From positions 310,001-374,000 of the forward strand of contig MU005964.1 in assembly GCA_010093745.1 (NCBI GenBank): 64,000 nt of DNA. The letters are read 5' to 3'. The translations under genes were made by a program, and so were the position numbers. Position 1 is the stretch's first letter. Every line of letters begins with the position of its first letter. This document shows positions 49,546-56,928 of this stretch, piece after piece. Source of the DNA: Piedraia hortae CBS 480.64 (taxonomy: Eukaryota). The notes under the pieces were generated by a model. It had not been told where the DNA came from, did no database searches, and was given only the letters and a program-made list of their open reading frames with translations.

Positions 49546-51970
49546 ATGGCGCAAAACAGCAAAGTGCTTCCGCCAAAAGAGCAGTCGCTGTTCCGGCATC
49601 TGGTCCAGAATTACGAGTCCAAGCAATACAAAAAAGGGCTCAAGGCGGCGGATCAGATCCTGCGAAAGCACCCGGATCATGGCGACACGCAGGCCATGAA
49701 AGCCCTCATCCTGATGAACCAGGGCTTTACCACCGAGGCTTTTGATCTCTGTAAGCTTGCGCTCAAGAACTCGATGAAGAGTCACGTGTGCTGGCACGTC
49801 TACGGCCTGCTCTACCGCCAGCAGAAGAACTACGATGAAGCCATCAAGGCCTACCGTTTCGCCCTGAAGCTGGACCCGGACTCGGCGCAGATCCTGCGCG
49901 ATCTGGCACTTATGCAGATTCAGACGCGTGACTACAAGGGCTACGTGACCAGCCGTAGGACCATGTTGCAGGCTCGGCCCCAGTTGCGCCTAAACTGGAC
50001 AGCTCTGGCTGTGGGGCTGCACTTGGACGGCGATCTCAAGGCTGCCGAAGACGTACTCACGCGGTACGAGGAAAGCTCCAAGATTGCCCCCAGTCGCGGA
50101 GATGTAGAGCACCATGAGGCTGTGCTGTACAAAAACATCATCATTGCTGAGCAAGGCGATCTGGAGCGGGCTCTGCAGCATTTGGAGTCGGTGTACAAGA
50201 CCGTCCTGGACCGCACAGCGGTAATGGAGATGAAAGCCGACTATCTCCTCCGCCTCGGGCGCCTTGAAGCCGCCGAGAAGGCGTATAATGACCTTCTGGC
50301 CCGGAATCCGGAGCGCAGAGCTTATTATAGCGGTCTGGAAAGGGCCAAAGGTCTCGACCGAAGCCGCAAAGAGGACCGCGAAAAGCTGCTTGATATGTAC
50401 AGCGAGTGGGAACGCCGGAATGAGCGTATCGACGCGGCAAGACGCATCCCACTGGACTTTACCGAGGGCACAGCGTTTCGCGAGAGGGCTGATGCCTATC
50501 TGAAGCGAATGTTCCGCAAGGGCGTGCCCAGCACGTTTGCGAATCTCAAAGAGCTTTATGCTGACTCTGCCAAGATGCACACGGTCCAGGACCTTGTTGA
50601 AGGTTACGCAAGTGCCAACGATGCAGGGGTAGACGGAGACGAAGCGAACAAGAATTGGCAGCTCGGCATCAACTTCTTCCTAGCTCAGCACTACAATCAC
50701 CCGCTATCGCGAGATTCGGCAAAGGCGCAGCAGTACATTGACCGTGCCATTCAGCTCAATTCATCTTCAACCGACTACACTTACCACATGACCCGTGCGA
50801 GGATCTTGAAGAATCTCGGGGCCGTTGATCAGGCAGCAGTAGTCATGAACGAGGCACGAGAGATGGACCTTAAAGACCGCTATATCAATACAAAGTGTGC
50901 CAAGTATCAGCTTCGAAACGAACAGAACCAGGATGCCATTGACACCATGGGACTCTTTACCCGCAAAGAAGCTGTCGGTGGACCACTAGGCGACTTGCTT
51001 GACATGCAATGCGTGTGGTTCCTGGTCGAGGACGGTGAATCGTATCTTCGTCAGGGTCGTTTGGCATTGGCATTGAAGCGCTTCCAGTCCATCTATACCA
51101 TCTTTGAGACGTGGTACGACGATCAGATCGACTTCCACACCTTCAGCCTGCGTCGTGGCATGGTGCGTGCCTATGTGGATATGATGCGGTGGGAAGATCG
51201 GCTGCGAGACCATCCCTACTATACTCGTGCCGCCCTTTCAGCTATACGCCTGTGTCTAACGGTGCATGACCGGCCTGAAGCAAAAGCCAACGGGGAAGTC
51301 AAGGGGAAGAAGGCCAAACCGGCCAAAAAGACCGAAGTCCCGTCCAACGACAAGGATCTGCAGGGCCTAGAAGCATTTGAAGCGATGCAAAAGCAACCGC
51401 TCGACGAGGCCATGAAGTTCCTCAACCCACTGCTAGAACTGAGTAGACAAAAAATTGACGGGCAGCTGGCGGGCTTTGAAATTTACATTCGAAGAAGTAA
51501 GTTGGGCTCTCTGTTGGACTAGTCCCTTGCTAATCGGCGTAGAAAAATATCTACCGGCACTCAAGTGCTTGCTGGCTGCACAGAAGCTCGACCCTGCGCA
51601 CCCCAGGTGCTACGAACAGAGCGTACGCTTCCAGCACGCACTCAAAGCAGTGGAACTGCCCGATGCGGTGAAGAACGTCATCGACGAGACGTTCAAACCA
51701 GCACCGGAGCTCGATTCGTTCTTGCAACAACACAACGATTCAGCAGCGCACTTGCAAAGTGCTGTGCGAGTGCGTGGGCTCCTCGGCCTAGACGCCGACG
51801 AATCCGGGAAAAAGGAAAGTCTAGATATGCTTTGCAAGTCGCTGACTCGTCCCGGAGCGAGCATCAAGCTGGCTCAAGATGGAGTAGAGATTGCAGATGC
51901 TCTTGGCGGAGGTGAAACCTACCGCAAGGCTGCCAGCCAACGATGGCCGGAAGCCAAAGCATTTCGCTAG
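49546..51970 (+). CDS. NAT1: N-terminal acetyltransferase A auxiliary subunit (Naa15); 2 exons
   Basis: YESKQYKKGLK, HGDTQAMK, SHVCWHVYG, DRYINTKCAKY, DQIDFHTFSLR. Intron 51497-51542. Confidence 0.96.
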
Positions 51971-52066
51971 ACAATCGGCTGGAAAATGCATTGCAGTGTA
52001 GTCAGTACAGCAGTAGAAAAACGAGGCATAATCACCATTGATCACCATACAGGTCTATAGGCATCA

Positions 52067-52909
52067 CTACCATAACCCTTCTAGCCGGAAAGGTTCCTTG
52101 AGTTCTGAAACAACCTTGACCTCTCCTTTGCCTGTCTTGCTCTCCGTTCGCGGTAACACTAGCCGTCCTTCGTGGATGTCGCTCAGCACCGCCAGCGCAG
52201 CGGAATGTAGGTTCGGCACGCCGCCTTTACCCAATCGTCCGCACTTCCGCGCCACCTCGACGAGAAATCTTGTCTCAAGATCGCTGCCAGCCGTGACCAG
52301 AGGCGGGATCTTGTAGTGACTAAGCACGGCTTGGATGCCTTCCTCCGGCAATGACTTGATCGTCTTCTGCACGACTCCAAAGGGATCGGCTATGGCCTCC
52401 TTCGGAAGTACTGTCTTTTCGTTGATCTCGGGCTCTGGGGAAGAAGAGAAGCCGTCCCATTCGTCTTCTTCTTCCACACCAACCATTGGTTGAGGCTGCT
52501 GCTTTGCTCGCACTCGAGCCGACTCTAAGAGTGCGGCCATGGGATCCGCTTTGTCGTCTACTTCCATGTCCTCTTCCACTTGCACGTCCTGCTCTACTTC
52601 TTCCTCACCGTCACCTACAGCAGTGGCAGGCTGTACATCCTCTTTCCTCTTCTGCCTATTCATCTCCCTCTTTCTCATCCGCTCTTCTTCTTTGATCCGC
52701 TTCTTCTCTTCCACCTCGGCCAAAAGCTGCTCTTTGAATGGGAAGCTGTTTGGAATCCCGGGATCCTTTTTTACGCGCGACTTCCATTGTGGGTTTGGGT
52801 TCTTGCGGGCATTGCGGCGCTCCTTCCGCTGCTTCGCTGCCGATGCCTTTTCGATCTTGTGTCTCAGGCGCACCGGAACGCGTTTGGACGTTGGTTTTCG
52901 GACTTTCAT
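52067..52909 (-). CDS. NUG1: Nug1/GNL3 (nucleostemin) homologue lacking the central GTPase domain
   Basis: N-terminal SKRVPVRLRHKIEK...KKDPGIPNSFPFKE and C-terminal FLVEVARKCGRLGKGGVPNL...SDIHEGR; no NKxD, GxxxxGKS or DxPG motif in the 280-aa continuous ORF. Confidence 0.88.
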   Translation of the reverse strand: MKVRKPTSKRVPVRLRHKIEKASAAKQRKERRNARKNPNPQWKSRVKKDPGIPNSFPFKEQLLAEVEEKKRIKEEERMRKREMNRQKRKEDVQPATAVGDGEEEVEQDVQVEEDMEVDDKADPMAALLESARVRAKQQPQPMVGVEEEDEWDGFSSSPEPEINEKTVLPKEAIADPFGVVQKTIKSLPEEGIQAVLSHYKIPPLVTAGSDLETRFLVEVARKCGRLGKGGVPNLHSAALAVLSDIHEGRLVLPRTESKTGKGEVKVVSELKEPFRLEGLW

Positions 52910-53420
52910 TGTGAGCTGCTATTTGAGGATTGTGGTTGTGGAAAAATTGCGACTTGGCTTATGTCACCCTCGGGACGTTCCGTGCGCCAAGAAGTGTTCA
53001 AAACGAACTGGACGGATATTTCTTGGCGCACGGCCGCCAGTTTATCATATGATTGTGGCCGAGCACATCTACATGGCTCTATCCTGAAAGTACTTATTGA
53101 TATATAGCAAAACGATCACACACTGCCTTCCGCTTATTGCCTCAATTCTGCAACTTCCTCGACATTGTGACTGCATCCTGCTTAGCAATGGTTGAACATA
53201 CTGTGTCACAATGGCCTTTCCAAAAGTATTTGTAGGACTCCGCAATCTGTTACCAAGATAACCCCCGTCCAACTGGTGTGGAGCGCAATTCATTTGTGGC
53301 GTGTCTCCCCACAACGCGCGCCGCGTCTTTAACCTCTCGACATTTCTTGACACCCTTCAAACTCAACTATACTCCTCTTGTTCTCTAACTCTCCCTCGTT
53401 CTTCCAAAGCGCATGCAGCC

Positions 53421-54214
53421 ATGTCCTCGAATAACCCCACAGCCAACACAAGCGGCAACAGTCGTCGCAAAAGCGCACACAGCAGCATAGATGAGCTGAT
53501 GCTCCCAAAGTCTCTCGTCTCACGCCTGTCCAAGGGCGCTCTACCACCGAACACGCAAATCCACAAAGACGCGCTCTTAGCCCTACACAAGAGCGCAACA
53601 GTCTTTGTCAACTACATTGCATCTGCGTAAGAACATTTCTATTTTGTTTGAAATATTGGAAGCTGACGGCGAGGAAACAGATCAAGTGAAAATGCACTGG
53701 CTGGAGGAAAGAAAACCCTCATGCCGGCCGATGTCATGGCCGCGCTCAAGGACGCCGAGCTGGAGCAATTCATCCCCCGCTTGCAAGAGGAGTTGAAGAG
53801 TGAGTTTCGCATTCTCTTCAAAGGATGCGAATGCTGACGGAGGTAGAGTACAACGAAGTCCAATGCGACAAGAGAAATGCCTACAGAAGGAAGGTAAAGG
53901 AAGATAAGAAAGCGGCGACCGCGTCCGCCATAGAAGATGATGGCCGGCCAAAGAAGAAGCTGCGCTTTTCAGAGGGTGTCGAAGTTGCTTCAGCCAACAC
54001 CGCGAATGAGAGCCCTAGCCAACTAGAAGAGGACGAGGAAAACGAAGGCGATAATGATGAGGATGGCGATGCAGTTGCTGATGAGGAAGTTGTGGAAGAA
54101 GTTGATGAGGAGGAAGTGGATGAAGAAGAGGCCGGTGACGAGCCCCAAGAGGATAGACTGGAGGAGCCTGATGGCGGCGGCGACTCTGATTCCGAGGACG
54201 ATGATGACGATTGA
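53421..54214 (+). CDS. DPB4: Histone-fold protein, DNA polymerase epsilon/CHRAC subunit Dpb4; 3 exons
   Basis: IDELMLPKSLVSRLSKG..IHKDALLALHKSATVFVNY, KKTLMPADVMAAL, acidic tail. Introns 53627-53680 and 53800-53846. Confidence 0.9.
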
Positions 54215-54560
54215 TTGAGATGTTCATGTTCTGGGTTTTATGTTGAAAGCGAGCATGTTTCATTGACTGACCGACTGAACCGAGTCCATGTTTTGCCGTA
54301 ATCCATCGGCTTGCATTGTTCCAACATGGTCATCTGATTGGGAAGCTTGTTTTCCTTACTAATAACAGCAAACCAATCTAGTGGTTGATGTTGGCGATTA
54401 AAGTAGGTCATACACAGCAATGTTACCACCATATCGGGTCCCGTTCAAGGCAAAACCAGACTTCCGGCAAATGTTCGGGCAGATTGAGTATGTATAGATA
54501 CGACTTATTCCACTGGTACATTGTGTCCTGCTGGCGCAATGGTAGCGCGCCAGACTTCTA

Positions 54561-54603
54561 ATCAGTGTGGGGATCGAAAGGTCTCCATTTCGCGCTGCTT
54601 GAA
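54561..54603 (+). other. Canonical tRNA (splicing-endonuclease type) intron at position 37/38, 43 nt
   Basis: Starts one base after the anticodon; antepenultimate G54601 can pair with C32 (anticodon-intron pair); internal GAAA-capped hairpin. Confidence 0.88.
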
Positions 54604-54617
54604 ATCTGGAGGTTGTG

Positions 54618-54671
54618 GTATGCATGTCTCAATATCTATCTATCGGGAACAAAGAACTAACGAAACTACAG
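54618..54671 (+). other. Spliceosomal-type intron (54 nt) in the T-stem of tRNA-Arg
   Basis: 5' GTATGC, branch site ACTAAC at 54656-54661, 3' CAG; exact excision gives GTG|GG that pairs with CCCAC. Confidence 0.85.
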
Positions 54672-54694
54672 GGTTCGAGTCCCACGTAGGATGC

Positions 54695-54703
54695 TTTTTT
54701 TTT
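54695..54703 (+). terminator. RNA polymerase III oligo(T) terminator of the tRNA gene
   Basis: T9 run starting two bases after the discriminator G54693. Confidence 0.85.
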
Positions 54704-54987
54704 CCTTTTGTCCGTTTCCTTTAGGCCTTAACGGGTGGACGTTAGCGACGCAAGGATTCGTAGATGGCTGTTGGTCACAGGTTGCACAACATCAACGCCG
54801 CGAGAATTGGCTGAAGTCGCCGTGGGTGGGCACGGGGTGACCAGGGCCCGAGTATCTCCTGCCCATGACATCTACATCGACCGACATCGTCTTGCACCTT
54901 GCAGCCACCTGAGACGCGGCGCTGCGTCGGTTGTGCTACTCGATCGACCACGGGGCCCTGGTAGGTCGGTAGGGGGGTTGTGTAGGG

Positions 54988-56928
54988 ATGCCTTGGTCCC
55001 CAGGCCCTCCTTCGCCCACCACGACCATCACCACCATTAGCAGTAGCCTAACAACTCCAATCAATAACACGTCAAACACCGTGGACCCCACCGTCTTGAG
55101 CCCTACCACCCTCATCCACTCCACCCTCAACCCTACCACCACTGTCAGGACCCCCACCACCCCGACCTCTAACCTCACCTTCAACCCCGCCTCCAACCCT
55201 GACACCACCATCACCACCACCACCACCACCACCACCACCACAACCACCACCACCATCGCGTCCGCCTTGTCCACCCCCATGGACCACGCGTCCACGGTCG
55301 ATCCCGCTGCCCTCGACACCCGCTCTCCGCCGCTGCAACCGCTGCAACCGCCGCCGCCACTCCTCATCGAATCGCGCGGCGTGAAGCGCAGCCGCTCGCC
55401 CGACGTTTTGCCGCGCGCATCGTCCAAGCCGGCCGACGACGTGCAGGCCGCGAAGCGCAGTCGCCCAGATGTCAAACCTAGCCTCCAGGCGCCCGCGAGC
55501 CAGACTCCAAAGCCGTCCTCGTCGTCACCGTCGCGCTCGCCACCACTGTCCGCGGGCGCCAAGTCGACCCTCAAGGCGCTGCCAACAGTGCGCGACCACA
55601 CTACCAGCCAGTTGGGTCCAGAAGGCGACGAATACCTACCGCGCGAGATTGATGCAGATGGGGAAGCCAAGGTGACGGCCTTAGGCGAGCTCTGCGATGG
55701 CCGCCAGTACTGCTGCCGCACCTTCCGGCTGCCGGAGCGCGGCGACAAGCTATTCATGCTCGCCACAGAGTGCGCACGCGTCCTGGGCTACCGCGACTCG
55801 TACCTGCTCTTCAACAAGAACCGCTCGCTCTACAAGATCATCGCCAATCAGGCTGAAAAGGATAGTCTCATTCAGCAGGAGAAGTTGCCTTACTCTTACC
55901 GCTCGCGCCAGATCGCCATCGTTACCGCACGATCCATGTTTCGGCAGTTCGGCTCGCGCATGATCGAAGGCGGCCGGCGTGTGCGCGACGACTACTGGGA
56001 GGCCAAGGCACGCAAGCAGGGATTCACCGACGAGGATCTAGCGGGCGAGAAGCGGCCCGGGGCGGGCAAGGCCAGGCAGGCGGCGGCGGAAGCGGCAGCG
56101 GCAGCAGCAGCAGCTGAGCTCCACCGTCCACCGCCGCAGGCCATGCCAAAGGGTGAGATTGTCTACTGCCACGATCCCGACGCGCGACCACCAGATGCGT
56201 CGTCGTTGCCACTGGCGCCGATGCCCATGATGCACCTGTCCGGCGACGATCTGCGCGCAGGCGGCCTCAGCGGTGCGGTGCGGCCGCGCCAGGAGGCTAC
56301 GGGTCCGCCATGTCACGATGTCGCGCAGTCGACGCCACCGCACGAGCTGCTGCACCAGGCCGCCTCGGCAGCAGAGCATCAGAAACAGCTCAGCCAAATG
56401 CGCGTACACCGCTCCAACTATCTGGACAGCTACTGGCGACGCCCACAAGAACAGCCGGCAGCCCCGCCGTCAGCTCCCGAGCGGCAGATCGATATGCAAC
56501 CGATGGCTTCACCTCGTGCCGCCGCTCCCATGCGCTTGCCTCCCGATCCCATGGCGCATCCCAATGCGCAGATGATGTCGGCCGTGTACGCCGCGTATCC
56601 GTCCCAGTCCCCCGGTTTGGCGCATCACAGCATGCCGACCGGCCCTGTCCAGGCCGTACCGTCCGCGCAGCCGGTAGCGTCATATGGCTACGCGTCCGGG
56701 GCAGGTCCCATGTGGCCGCCAGCTCAGCCCCAGCCCTCGCAACTCTCACAGTCGATGCATTACGCAGCGCCGCAGCACTCTCAAATGGGTCCCCCTCAAT
56801 CGCAGCCGGCTATGGCCTACCAGATGAATGCACTAAACAATCCGGCTTACGCCAGCCGAATGTATCAGTCCGGCGTTCCTTATGGCATGCCACCAACCAT
56901 GCCACAGGACTGGCGAAGATACCAGTAG
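54988..56928 (+). CDS. NPL6: RSC/SWI-SNF subunit Rsc7/Npl6/Swp82 family
   Basis: GEAKVTALGEL..GRQY..RTF, LFMLATECARVLGYRDSYLLFNKNRSL, VTARSMFRQFG, VRDDYWE. Start uncertain (54988 or 55279). Confidence 0.88.
   Translation: MPWSPGPPSPTTTITTISSSLTTPINNTSNTVDPTVLSPTTLIHSTLNPTTTVRTPTTPTSNLTFNPASNPDTTITTTTTTTTTTTTTTIASALSTPMDHASTVDPAALDTRSPPLQPLQPPPPLLIESRGVKRSRSPDVLPRASSKPADDVQAAKRSRPDVKPSLQAPASQTPKPSSSSPSRSPPLSAGAKSTLKALPTVRDHTTSQLGPEGDEYLPREIDADGEAKVTALGELCDGRQYCCRTFRLPERGDKLFMLATECARVLGYRDSYLLFNKNRSLYKIIANQAEKDSLIQQEKLPYSYRSRQIAIVTARSMFRQFGSRMIEGGRRVRDDYWEAKARKQGFTDEDLAGEKRPGAGKARQAAAEAAAAAAAAELHRPPPQAMPKGEIVYCHDPDARPPDASSLPLAPMPMMHLSGDDLRAGGLSGAVRPRQEATGPPCHDVAQSTPPHELLHQAASAAEHQKQLSQMRVHRSNYLDSYWRRPQEQPAAPPSAPERQIDMQPMASPRAAAPMRLPPDPMAHPNAQMMSAVYAAYPSQSPGLAHHSMPTGPVQAVPSAQPVASYGYASGAGPMWPPAQPQPSQLSQSMHYAAPQHSQMGPPQSQPAMAYQMNALNNPAYASRMYQSGVPYGMPPTMPQDWRRYQ
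55204..55254 (+). repeat. (ACC)n microsatellite encoding poly-Thr
   Basis: Perfect (ACC)9 at 55213-55239 within an imperfect run that encodes 14 consecutive Thr. Confidence 0.85.

Follow-up and report, generated by a model that had tools for sequence, protein, structure and literature searches.

A tRNA-Arg(UCU) gene of Piedraia hortae with a spliceosomal-type insert in its T stem, and comparable genes in other fungi

The stretch of DNA analysed here, termed the window, comprises 64,000 nucleotides (nt) of Piedraia hortae CBS 480.64 (contig MU005964.1, positions 310,001 to 374,000) and harbors a nuclear transfer RNA gene, tRNA-Arg(UCU), which is confirmed to be interrupted by two inserts. The first is an ordinary tRNA intron, while the second, located in the T stem, is a spliceosomal-type intron in all respects that its sequence can reveal. 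Judged from sequence comparison, the locus is on the whole probably a working gene, the T-stem insert of which would be removed by the spliceosome. The extension of spliceosomal introns to tRNA genes, apparently undescribed before, is probably real, and the confidence placed in the phenomenon is higher than that placed in the window gene. In its full form the proposal, which is held with slightly better than even confidence, regards the spliceosome as a tRNA-maturation enzyme in at least two classes of filamentous ascomycetes, with introns that would be gained repeatedly by reverse splicing, kept in working genes and invisible to annotation. The classes meant are that of the window, a Dothideomycete, and Knufia-like Chaetothyriales (metagenome loci L003, L004 and L006), and an unplaced fungus (L002) represents a further case. 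As part of the same proposal, a pre-tRNA-Arg(UCU) made by RNA polymerase III (Pol III) would contain, in addition to the endonuclease-type intron, one or two spliceosomal introns located in the acceptor stem or the T arm.

Anatomy of the window gene and its two inserts

The anatomy of the gene is read directly from the DNA, and the gene body, which measures 169 nt with both inserts, is organized together with its flanking elements as follows.

54525-54560 (+): exon 1, with the 5' acceptor strand, D arm, 5' anticodon stem and anticodon (tRNA positions 1-37), from ARAGORN and exon comparison
54532-54542 (+): A box, uninterrupted
54561-54603 (+): insert 1, an ordinary tRNA intron of 43 nt at position 37/38, from ARAGORN i(37,43) after removal of insert 2
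54604-54617 (+): exon 2, tRNA positions 38-51
54618-54671 (+): insert 2, spliceosome-type, 54 nt, between T-stem positions 51 and 52
54618-54623 (+): donor GTATGC of insert 2
54655-54661 (+): branch-site motif AACTAAC of insert 2, the candidate branch A lying 11 nt before the last insert base
54669-54671 (+): acceptor CAG of insert 2
54672-54693 (+): exon 3, with the rest of the T arm, the 3' acceptor strand and the discriminator G (positions 52-73)
54672-54682 (+): B box, intact, beginning at the first base past insert 2
54695-54703 (+): T9 run, a Pol III-type terminator
54493-54500 (+): TATA-like element, about 30 nt upstream of the tRNA start (position computed)

When both inserts are removed from 54525-54693, a clean 72-nt tRNA-Arg(UCU) is obtained, in which the anticodon loop of 7 nt and all four stems are present and 21 of 21 stem pairs are Watson-Crick or G-U. 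The GT...AG cut of insert 2 restores a T stem of 5 base pairs. An earlier note on this DNA, made from the sequence alone, had stated that all stems remain paired, which is borne out by the in silico removal. The mature 3' end lies at 54693 rather than at 54697. No pseudogene sign, be it a stem-breaking change, a lost box or a lost terminator, was found in the window gene. Runs of four or more T are likewise missing inside the gene, including both inserts, and the longest T run in insert 2 is a single T. The locus may also be an inactive yet undecayed copy.

Insert 1 occupies the canonical position 37/38, where ARAGORN places an intron of 43 nt, and none of its five equivalent registers (-1 to +3) offers GT-AG ends, in agreement with its original description as an ordinary tRNA intron. 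The anticodon stem extends into insert 1 when folded with RNAfold, as in ordinary pre-tRNAs. Insert 2, found at 51/52 rather than at 37/38, is of another kind. Its boundaries are fixed by the exons to three equivalent registers (-1, 0 and +1), one of which is GT...AG, and within this frame a GTRNGY-like donor, a CTRAY branch motif, a YAG acceptor and a host-typical length are all present. In a random 54-mer of the window's composition, the chance of GTnnG together with CTRAY near the end and YAG amounts to 3e-5 per register (2,000,000 trials).

Two sequencing runs of one organism were available for comparison, a DNA-like run that is possibly the source of the window, and a second run from another sample and study, which is taken as RNA since its contigs are joined over three GT...AG stretches of nearby genes, leaving these out. 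These joints define three host introns nearby, at 51497-51542 (46 nt), 53627-53680 (54 nt) and 53800-53846 (47 nt), with GTAAGT, GTAAGA or GTGAGT as donors and CTAAT or CTGAC 9-14 nt before the end. Insert 2 resembles these RNA-supported introns in length and layout, since it measures 54 nt and has its branch A 11 nt from the end. The initial view that the insert is built as a spliceosomal intron thus holds for the donor, branch site, acceptor and length alike.

The gene escapes standard tRNA finders, as had been anticipated. ARAGORN at default settings reports no tRNA gene in the whole window of 64 kilobases (kb), and Rfam gives no match in the window at its gathering score; in a permissive scan the Rfam tRNA model reaches 18.2 bits, against a cut-off of 29, with the 3' half misplaced. 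Without its intron option, ARAGORN makes no call after removal of one insert and calls tRNA-Arg(tct) after removal of both. With the intron option, removal of insert 2 alone leads to tRNA-Arg(tct) with a 43-nt intron at 37, and the native sequence leads to a spurious 95-nt 'tRNA-Pyl(cta)'. When each GT...AG stretch was deleted by brute force, seven deletions in the window were accepted by ARAGORN, and a bare ARAGORN call is therefore weak evidence; six of them leave odd loops or boundaries, and removal of the 54 nt is the one of the seven that gives a standard T stem.

Comparable inserts in tRNA-Arg(UCU) genes of other fungi

Metagenome contigs were scanned with a single query, an unchanged 29-nt piece of exon 1 (tRNA positions 9-38), which samples one tRNA species and to which inserts within positions 9-38 are invisible. 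The 12 loci retrieved correspond to 10 distinct genes (L007 equals L012, and L009 lies inside L006). Six of these are ordinary, three with an 11-nt intron at 37/38 (L001, L005 and L007) and three intron-less (L008, L010 and L011). The other four, L002, L003, L004 and L006, harbor window-type inserts, six of them complete and one cut by the end of a contig.

L002: insert of 56 nt at position 7/8
L002: insert of 72 nt in the T loop at position 59/60 (2551-2622), splitting the B box and containing TTTT
L003: insert of 52 nt at position 8/9, splitting the A box
L003: insert at position 69/70, cut after GTAAGC by the contig end
L004: insert of 50 nt at position 49/50
L006: insert of 52 nt at position 3/4
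L006: insert of 52 nt at position 69/70

A search of this and related genomes for tRNA halves separated by GT..CTRAC..YAG had been proposed at the outset. Genes with inserts of this build make up 4 of the 10 distinct tRNA-Arg(UCU) genes in the metagenome contigs. Together with the window, seven complete inserts and one partial insert occupy seven positions, six of which differ from the 51/52 of the window. Every complete insert starts with GT, ends in CAG or TAG, measures 50-72 nt and contains a branch motif (CTAAC in six, CTAAT in one) with the A 11-13 nt from the end. After the inserts had been removed in silico, all 12 sequences were called tRNA-Arg(tct) by ARAGORN without the intron option, and the complete interrupted genes showed 21 of 21 stem pairs. 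In the MAFFT alignment the exons form invariant blocks and the inserts private gaps. Rfam scores uninterrupted genes at 60.4-70.6 bits and interrupted genes at 32.9-51.3 bits with wrong ends. All complete genes have a run of 4-9 T within about 40 nt downstream. As regards the unplaced fungus L002, no named protein exceeds 45% identity to its neighbour protein, and ATGCGTCA is seen close to its tRNA gene.

The anatomy of these inserts bears on the question of whether they are non-canonical tRNA introns, cut by the tRNA splicing endonuclease or another nuclease through RNA structure, with GT-AG being incidental. Introns in the T arm and acceptor stem, several per gene, are described for Archaea, Cyanidioschyzon and nucleomorphs in the accessible parts of two papers (PMC3978253, PMC4033280), and a weak 4-base-pair helix can be drawn at the insert of the window. 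No insert, however, offers a bulge-helix-bulge with supporting helices: a central helix of 4 base pairs exists in three of the seven, roughly as many as chance would give over 16 offsets, and 0-3 pairs are all that the flanking helices contain. For insert 2 the sole candidate, a TTGT:ACAG helix with two outer pairs, one inner pair and asymmetric cuts, was rejected. Moreover, such a scheme has no role for a branch motif, which all seven inserts hold at a fixed distance of 11-13 nt from their end, and it is accordingly regarded as very improbable.

Other identities were considered and rejected. A transposon-type insertion does not agree with direct repeats of just 0-2 nt at the insert boundaries, and a self-splicing intron can be set aside because inserts of 50-72 nt would be too short. 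Nor do the inserts form a repeat family, since insert 2 has no second copy in the 64-kb window and the 21 pairs among the seven inserts reach a maximum z of 3.0 against shuffles. Introner-like elements of Dothideomycetes have reportedly been described by van der Burgt et al. in 2012 and Collemare et al. in 2013. Those elements show recent spliceosomal intron gain in Dothideomycetes, the class to which the proteins of the window point. They are multi-copy families in protein-coding genes, whereas the seven inserts are mutually dissimilar. The introner-like origin put forward in the earlier note is thus not sustained, as no similar copy was found in the window or among the seven complete inserts.

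Constraint on the exons can be judged from four of the loci. The same neighbour gene lies upstream in L003, L004, L006 and L007, and collinearity between L006 and L007 extends through the full 5 kb. On sequence grounds the four are one orthologous tRNA locus in related fungi, the inserts differing between species. The neighbour in L006, a P450, is 91% identical to a Knufia fluminis protein, followed by other Trichomeriaceae proteins, and therefore points to a fungal class other than that of the window. Pairwise comparison of the loci gave the following values, the flank identities being BLAST identities because global flank alignments are too gappy for a rate.

L006 and L007: flank identity 84%, exon identity 70/72
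L004 and L006: flank identity 78%, exon identity 72/72
L003 and L006: flank identity 74%, exon identity 68/68
L003 and L004: flank identity 69%, exon identity 68/68

The two exon differences between L006 and L007 are both sides of a compensatory pair, 5-68. At the divergence of the flanks, which are mostly coding, 16-21 differences would be expected in 68-72 nt of free-running exon, as against 0 observed. The simplest reading of exons that stay identical despite flank divergence is purifying selection on working genes, and in working genes the excision of the inserts has to be exact. Exon uniformity could also stem from gene conversion by intact copies, a process that would, however, tend to eliminate the inserts. 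L003 and L006 have position 69/70 and the donor GTAAGC in common but differ in their 5' inserts, which fits a shared 69/70 insert followed by further gains with zero exon changes. The downstream terminator TTTTTGCC is identical in L004, L006 and the uninterrupted L007. In L003, L004, L005 and L006, whether the gene has GT-AG inserts or not, a TGCGTCAT motif followed by AAAATT and GCACACACGCA precedes the tRNA by 20-100 nt. This shared TGCGTCAT/GCACACACGCA motif may be an upstream promoter element or a mere sign of orthology, and no motif of the TGCGTCAT type occurs upstream of the gene in the window.

The lineage of the window itself is represented by two syntenic orthologues, L008 and L010, in which the product of the upstream gene is about 80% identical to that of the window and Rsc7 lies downstream, with 76% amino-acid identity in L010.

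L008, 1596-1667: tRNA-Arg(UCU), intron-less
L010, 2466-2537 (-): tRNA-Arg(UCU), intron-less

As no intron is present in either gene, both inserts of the window are lineage-specific or have been lost in these relatives. The exons of L008 and L010 are identical at 72 of 72 positions with 84% identity across about 4.2 kb of the loci, and the locus is therefore a constrained gene in the relatives. Compared with them, the window differs at 9 of 72 positions, six of which form three compensatory pairs (2-71, 50-64 and 51-63); of the remaining three, one restores the 52-62 pair that is mismatched in L008 and L010, and two are unpaired. Comparison with the other loci suggests that the 2-71 change took place in the lineage of the window, and the T-stem changes probably belong to that of L008 and L010. 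The genes of L008 and L010 themselves show a T52-C62 mismatch in the T stem and an A73 discriminator, and score 61.2 bits in Rfam.

The neighbours of the gene in the window encode a NatA auxiliary subunit, a Grn1-like GTPase and an Rsc7/Swp82 subunit. The NatA fragment matches a Piedraia hortae CBS 480.64 protein (100%), and the next matches, of 67% identity at most, belong to Capnodiales-type Dothideomycetes. A gene at 53408-54177 (+), placed between the Grn1-like gene and the tRNA, contains the two RNA-supported introns 53627-53680 and 53800-53846; this is the gene whose product is conserved upstream in L008 and L010. The Rsc7/Swp82 gene contains low-complexity stretches at 55196-55267 and 56053-56120, including a run of about 14 threonine codons.

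Evidence from the sequencing runs and the competing explanations

The DNA-like run covers 51227-55195 with zero differences, an agreement that is not independent if this run is the source of the window. A contig of the RNA-like run (636 nt, mean depth 101) matches 54606-55195 without a difference and contains insert 2, which therefore exists outside the assembly. The earlier note had named raw data support for the insertion as a point to be checked, and this contig from another sample agrees with it. The idea of an assembly artefact or chimera could lean on the possible identity of the first run with the source of the window, but it can practically be dismissed in view of this contig from another sample and study and of the analogous inserts in five loci (L002, L003, L004, L006 and L009) from four metagenome data sets.

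Only 12 letters of the RNA-like contig lie upstream of the donor of insert 2, and the 5' boundary is not bridged. No contig of that run falls on 54178-54605, a blank that is uninformative about expression. The end of the contig at 54606 is 2-3 nt from the predicted 3' cut of insert 1, which may be fortuitous, or may reflect either a true RNA end or an interruption of the assembly graph. By joining the tRNA to the Rsc7 gene, the first ATG of which is at 54988, the contig would imply that a leader beginning within the tRNA gene extends over at least about 380 nt, or else that transcripts overlap.

The genome probably holds another gene of this kind. Apart from three letters, 54530-54564 is matched by a 1635-nt contig of the DNA-like run (depth 229.7, single copy corresponding to about 13), which then passes, with no intron in between, to a 3' anticodon strand, T arm and acceptor strand of different sequence. 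The three differing letters are exactly those needed to pair with its own 3' anticodon strand, because of which the contig is read as an intron-less paralogue. It is probably tRNA-Arg(UCU)-like, with the same D arm and anticodon loop, and present in many copies or in a repeat. The question of whether the gene of the window is the only tRNA-Arg(UCU) gene of the genome, which had been raised beforehand, is thus probably to be answered in the negative.

Several observations weigh against a working gene that depends on the spliceosome. The RNA-like contig is unspliced over the 3' boundary of insert 2 and runs on towards the Rsc7 gene; it is the only RNA-like contig on the locus and retains the insert, whereas the three neighbouring introns are spliced in the same run. 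A joint across 54618-54671 is found in the contigs of neither run, contigs being liable to drop rare forms and ordinary libraries to lose tRNAs. The motif alone proves little, the loose intron motif having 68 matches in the window versus a mean of 72.55 in 20 shuffles and hence not being enriched, and only its coincidence with exon-defined boundaries counts. With an intron-less paralogue at hand, a dead allele at the window could be tolerated, and the compensatory changes of the window are not datable relative to the insertion. The comparative sampling is narrow, with all cases coming from one tRNA species, one 29-mer and metagenome contigs. Finally, the T-loop insert of L002 splits the B box and holds TTTT, and an insert of L003 splits the A box; Pol III transcription of those two genes is therefore not assured, and a route through RNA polymerase II (Pol II) is conceivable.

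Part of this evidence would agree with a tolerated dead allele, in which an intron was copied into a redundant tRNA gene, the Pol III transcripts stay unspliced, no mature tRNA arises and paralogues supply tRNA-Arg(UCU). The high-depth intron-less paralogue and the retention of insert 2 in the sole RNA-like contig speak for such an allele, as does the lack of both inserts in L008 and L010, which makes them perhaps recent. It is opposed by the zero stem-breaking changes in 72 nt, by the change of the 2-71 pair on both sides in the lineage of the window, and by the Knufia-like genes, which keep identical exons with one or two inserts and flanks diverged by 22-31%. A dead allele is hence considered possible but rather doubtful.

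The unbroken link between the 3' part of the tRNA gene and Rsc7 in the RNA-like contig, together with the split boxes of L002 and L003, also recalls another route, in which the tRNA would be released from a Pol II transcript such as an Rsc7 transcript extended upstream. Splicing would take place during transcription, and RNase P and RNase Z would do the trimming afterwards. The accessible part of one paper describes splicing as normally coupled to Pol II (PMC8527467). The linking contig is unspliced, however, and a contig over two genes need not be one transcript. Furthermore, a run of 4-9 T lies downstream of all complete genes, the Knufia-like orthologues share the terminator TTTTTGCC, and the A and B boxes of the window are intact, so that this route is unlikely.

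Proposed maturation, known intron systems and significance

For the preferred reading, that of a Pol III-made and spliceosome-dependent tRNA, a maturation pathway may be put forward, in which the polymerase, the removing enzyme, the order of the steps and the origin of the insert are what we infer. Pol III would begin by transcribing the whole 169-nt body, a step proposed in view of the intact A box, B box and T9 run and of the lack of four or more consecutive T in either insert. The TATA-like element at 54493-54500 presumably plays an upstream role in Pol III transcription, by analogy to fission-yeast Pol III genes. Subsequently, the 54-nt insert would be excised by the spliceosome, guided by GUAUGC, by the ACUAAC branch and by the CAG located 11 nt beyond it. 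Formation of the T arm and folding of the tRNA body would have to await this excision. Placement of the cuts by the eukaryotic splicing endonuclease depends on a folded tRNA body. In the next step the tRNA splicing endonuclease and ligase would take out the 43-nt intron at 37/38, after which RNase P, RNase Z and CCA addition would complete the tRNA. As to the origin, an excised intron was most likely reverse-spliced into the tRNA transcript, followed by reverse transcription and recombination. Insert 2 shows no target-site duplication, and no relatives of it were found in the 64-kb window or among the seven inserts. The part of PMC11146597 that was accessible considers reverse splicing as a route by which introns may transpose.

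A search of the full-text literature disclosed no description of spliceosomal introns in nuclear tRNA genes, although an older report in subscription journals, which such a search covers thinly, is possible; the statement of the earlier note that no tRNA case is described agrees with this outcome. The closest wording, and the one phrase match, was 'non-spliceosomal tRNA introns'. According to the available portion of a 2025 paper, the three nuclear intron types appear unrelated, and spliceosomal introns are placed in Pol II transcripts (PMC12530127). A 2023 tRNA review, in its available text, names the spliceosome once, as a contrast (PMC10275265). The non-coding RNAs with spliceosomal introns that are listed in the accessible sections of a review on U6 are U1, U2, U5, U6 and ribosomal RNA (rRNA), with tRNA unlisted there (PMC5855946).

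Among the known systems, the introns of small nuclear RNA (snRNA) genes are the nearest. The same sections of the U6 review cite mRNA-type introns in fungal U6 as well as U1, U2 and U5 genes (Tani and Ohshima 1989, 1991; Takahashi 1993, 1996; cited in PMC5855946), and U6 of fission yeast is a Pol III transcript that is spliced (PMC5855946). The likeness, as far as these sections go, is that a small structured non-coding RNA, in the case of U6 one made by Pol III, is interrupted by a short GT-AG intron that has a branch site, and that the gains are lineage-specific, at varied sites and with reverse splicing as the proposed origin. Unlike tRNA, U6, U2 and U5 are located at the catalytic centre of the spliceosome or close to it, a position that accounts for their being targeted, and the gene of the window differs further in also holding an endonuclease-type intron. 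Spliceosomal introns in nuclear ribosomal DNA (rDNA) are known from lichen-forming and other ascomycetes (Bhattacharya et al. 2000, cited in the accessible parts of PMC5855946 and PMC8527467), and a lichen spliceosomal intron is removed by yeast from transcripts of RNA polymerase I (Pol I), as stated in the accessible part of PMC8527467. To judge from these sources, they resemble the present inserts in being ectopic, in an abundant structured RNA that is not made by Pol II, within Pezizomycotina, and in that removal is needed for function. They are unlike them in that the rDNA transcript is made by Pol I and is far longer, whereas tRNA exons are as short as 3-14 nt.

The tRNA introns of Archaea, Cyanidioschyzon and nucleomorphs, within the accessible text of the respective papers (PMC3978253, PMC4033280), are comparable in their acceptor-stem and T-arm sites, in numbering up to three per gene and in that one must go before the next is recognised. 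Unlike the fungal inserts, which lack the bulge-helix-bulge motif and carry spliceosomal signals, those introns have that motif and are cut by endonuclease. The accessible part of the tRNAscan-SE 2.0 paper states that non-canonical introns are sought in archaeal mode only, with bulge-helix-bulge models (PMC8450103). From this restriction and the sub-threshold Rfam score it follows that genes of the present type are probably missing from fungal tRNA sets.

Spliceosomal and tRNA introns are at present regarded as unrelated classes, with RNAs and enzymes of their own (PMC12530127, PMC10275265). A spliceosome-dependent tRNA, if true, would cross the line between intron classes and tie tRNA supply to splicing capacity. 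It would represent the second natural Pol III substrate of the spliceosome, after U6, and the textbook split of intron classes by RNA class and polymerase would fail for tRNA. Meanwhile, these genes offer a system for studying intron gain, in which the tRNA exons are near-invariant, the insertion sites are base-exact, and orthologues with and without each insert are at hand.

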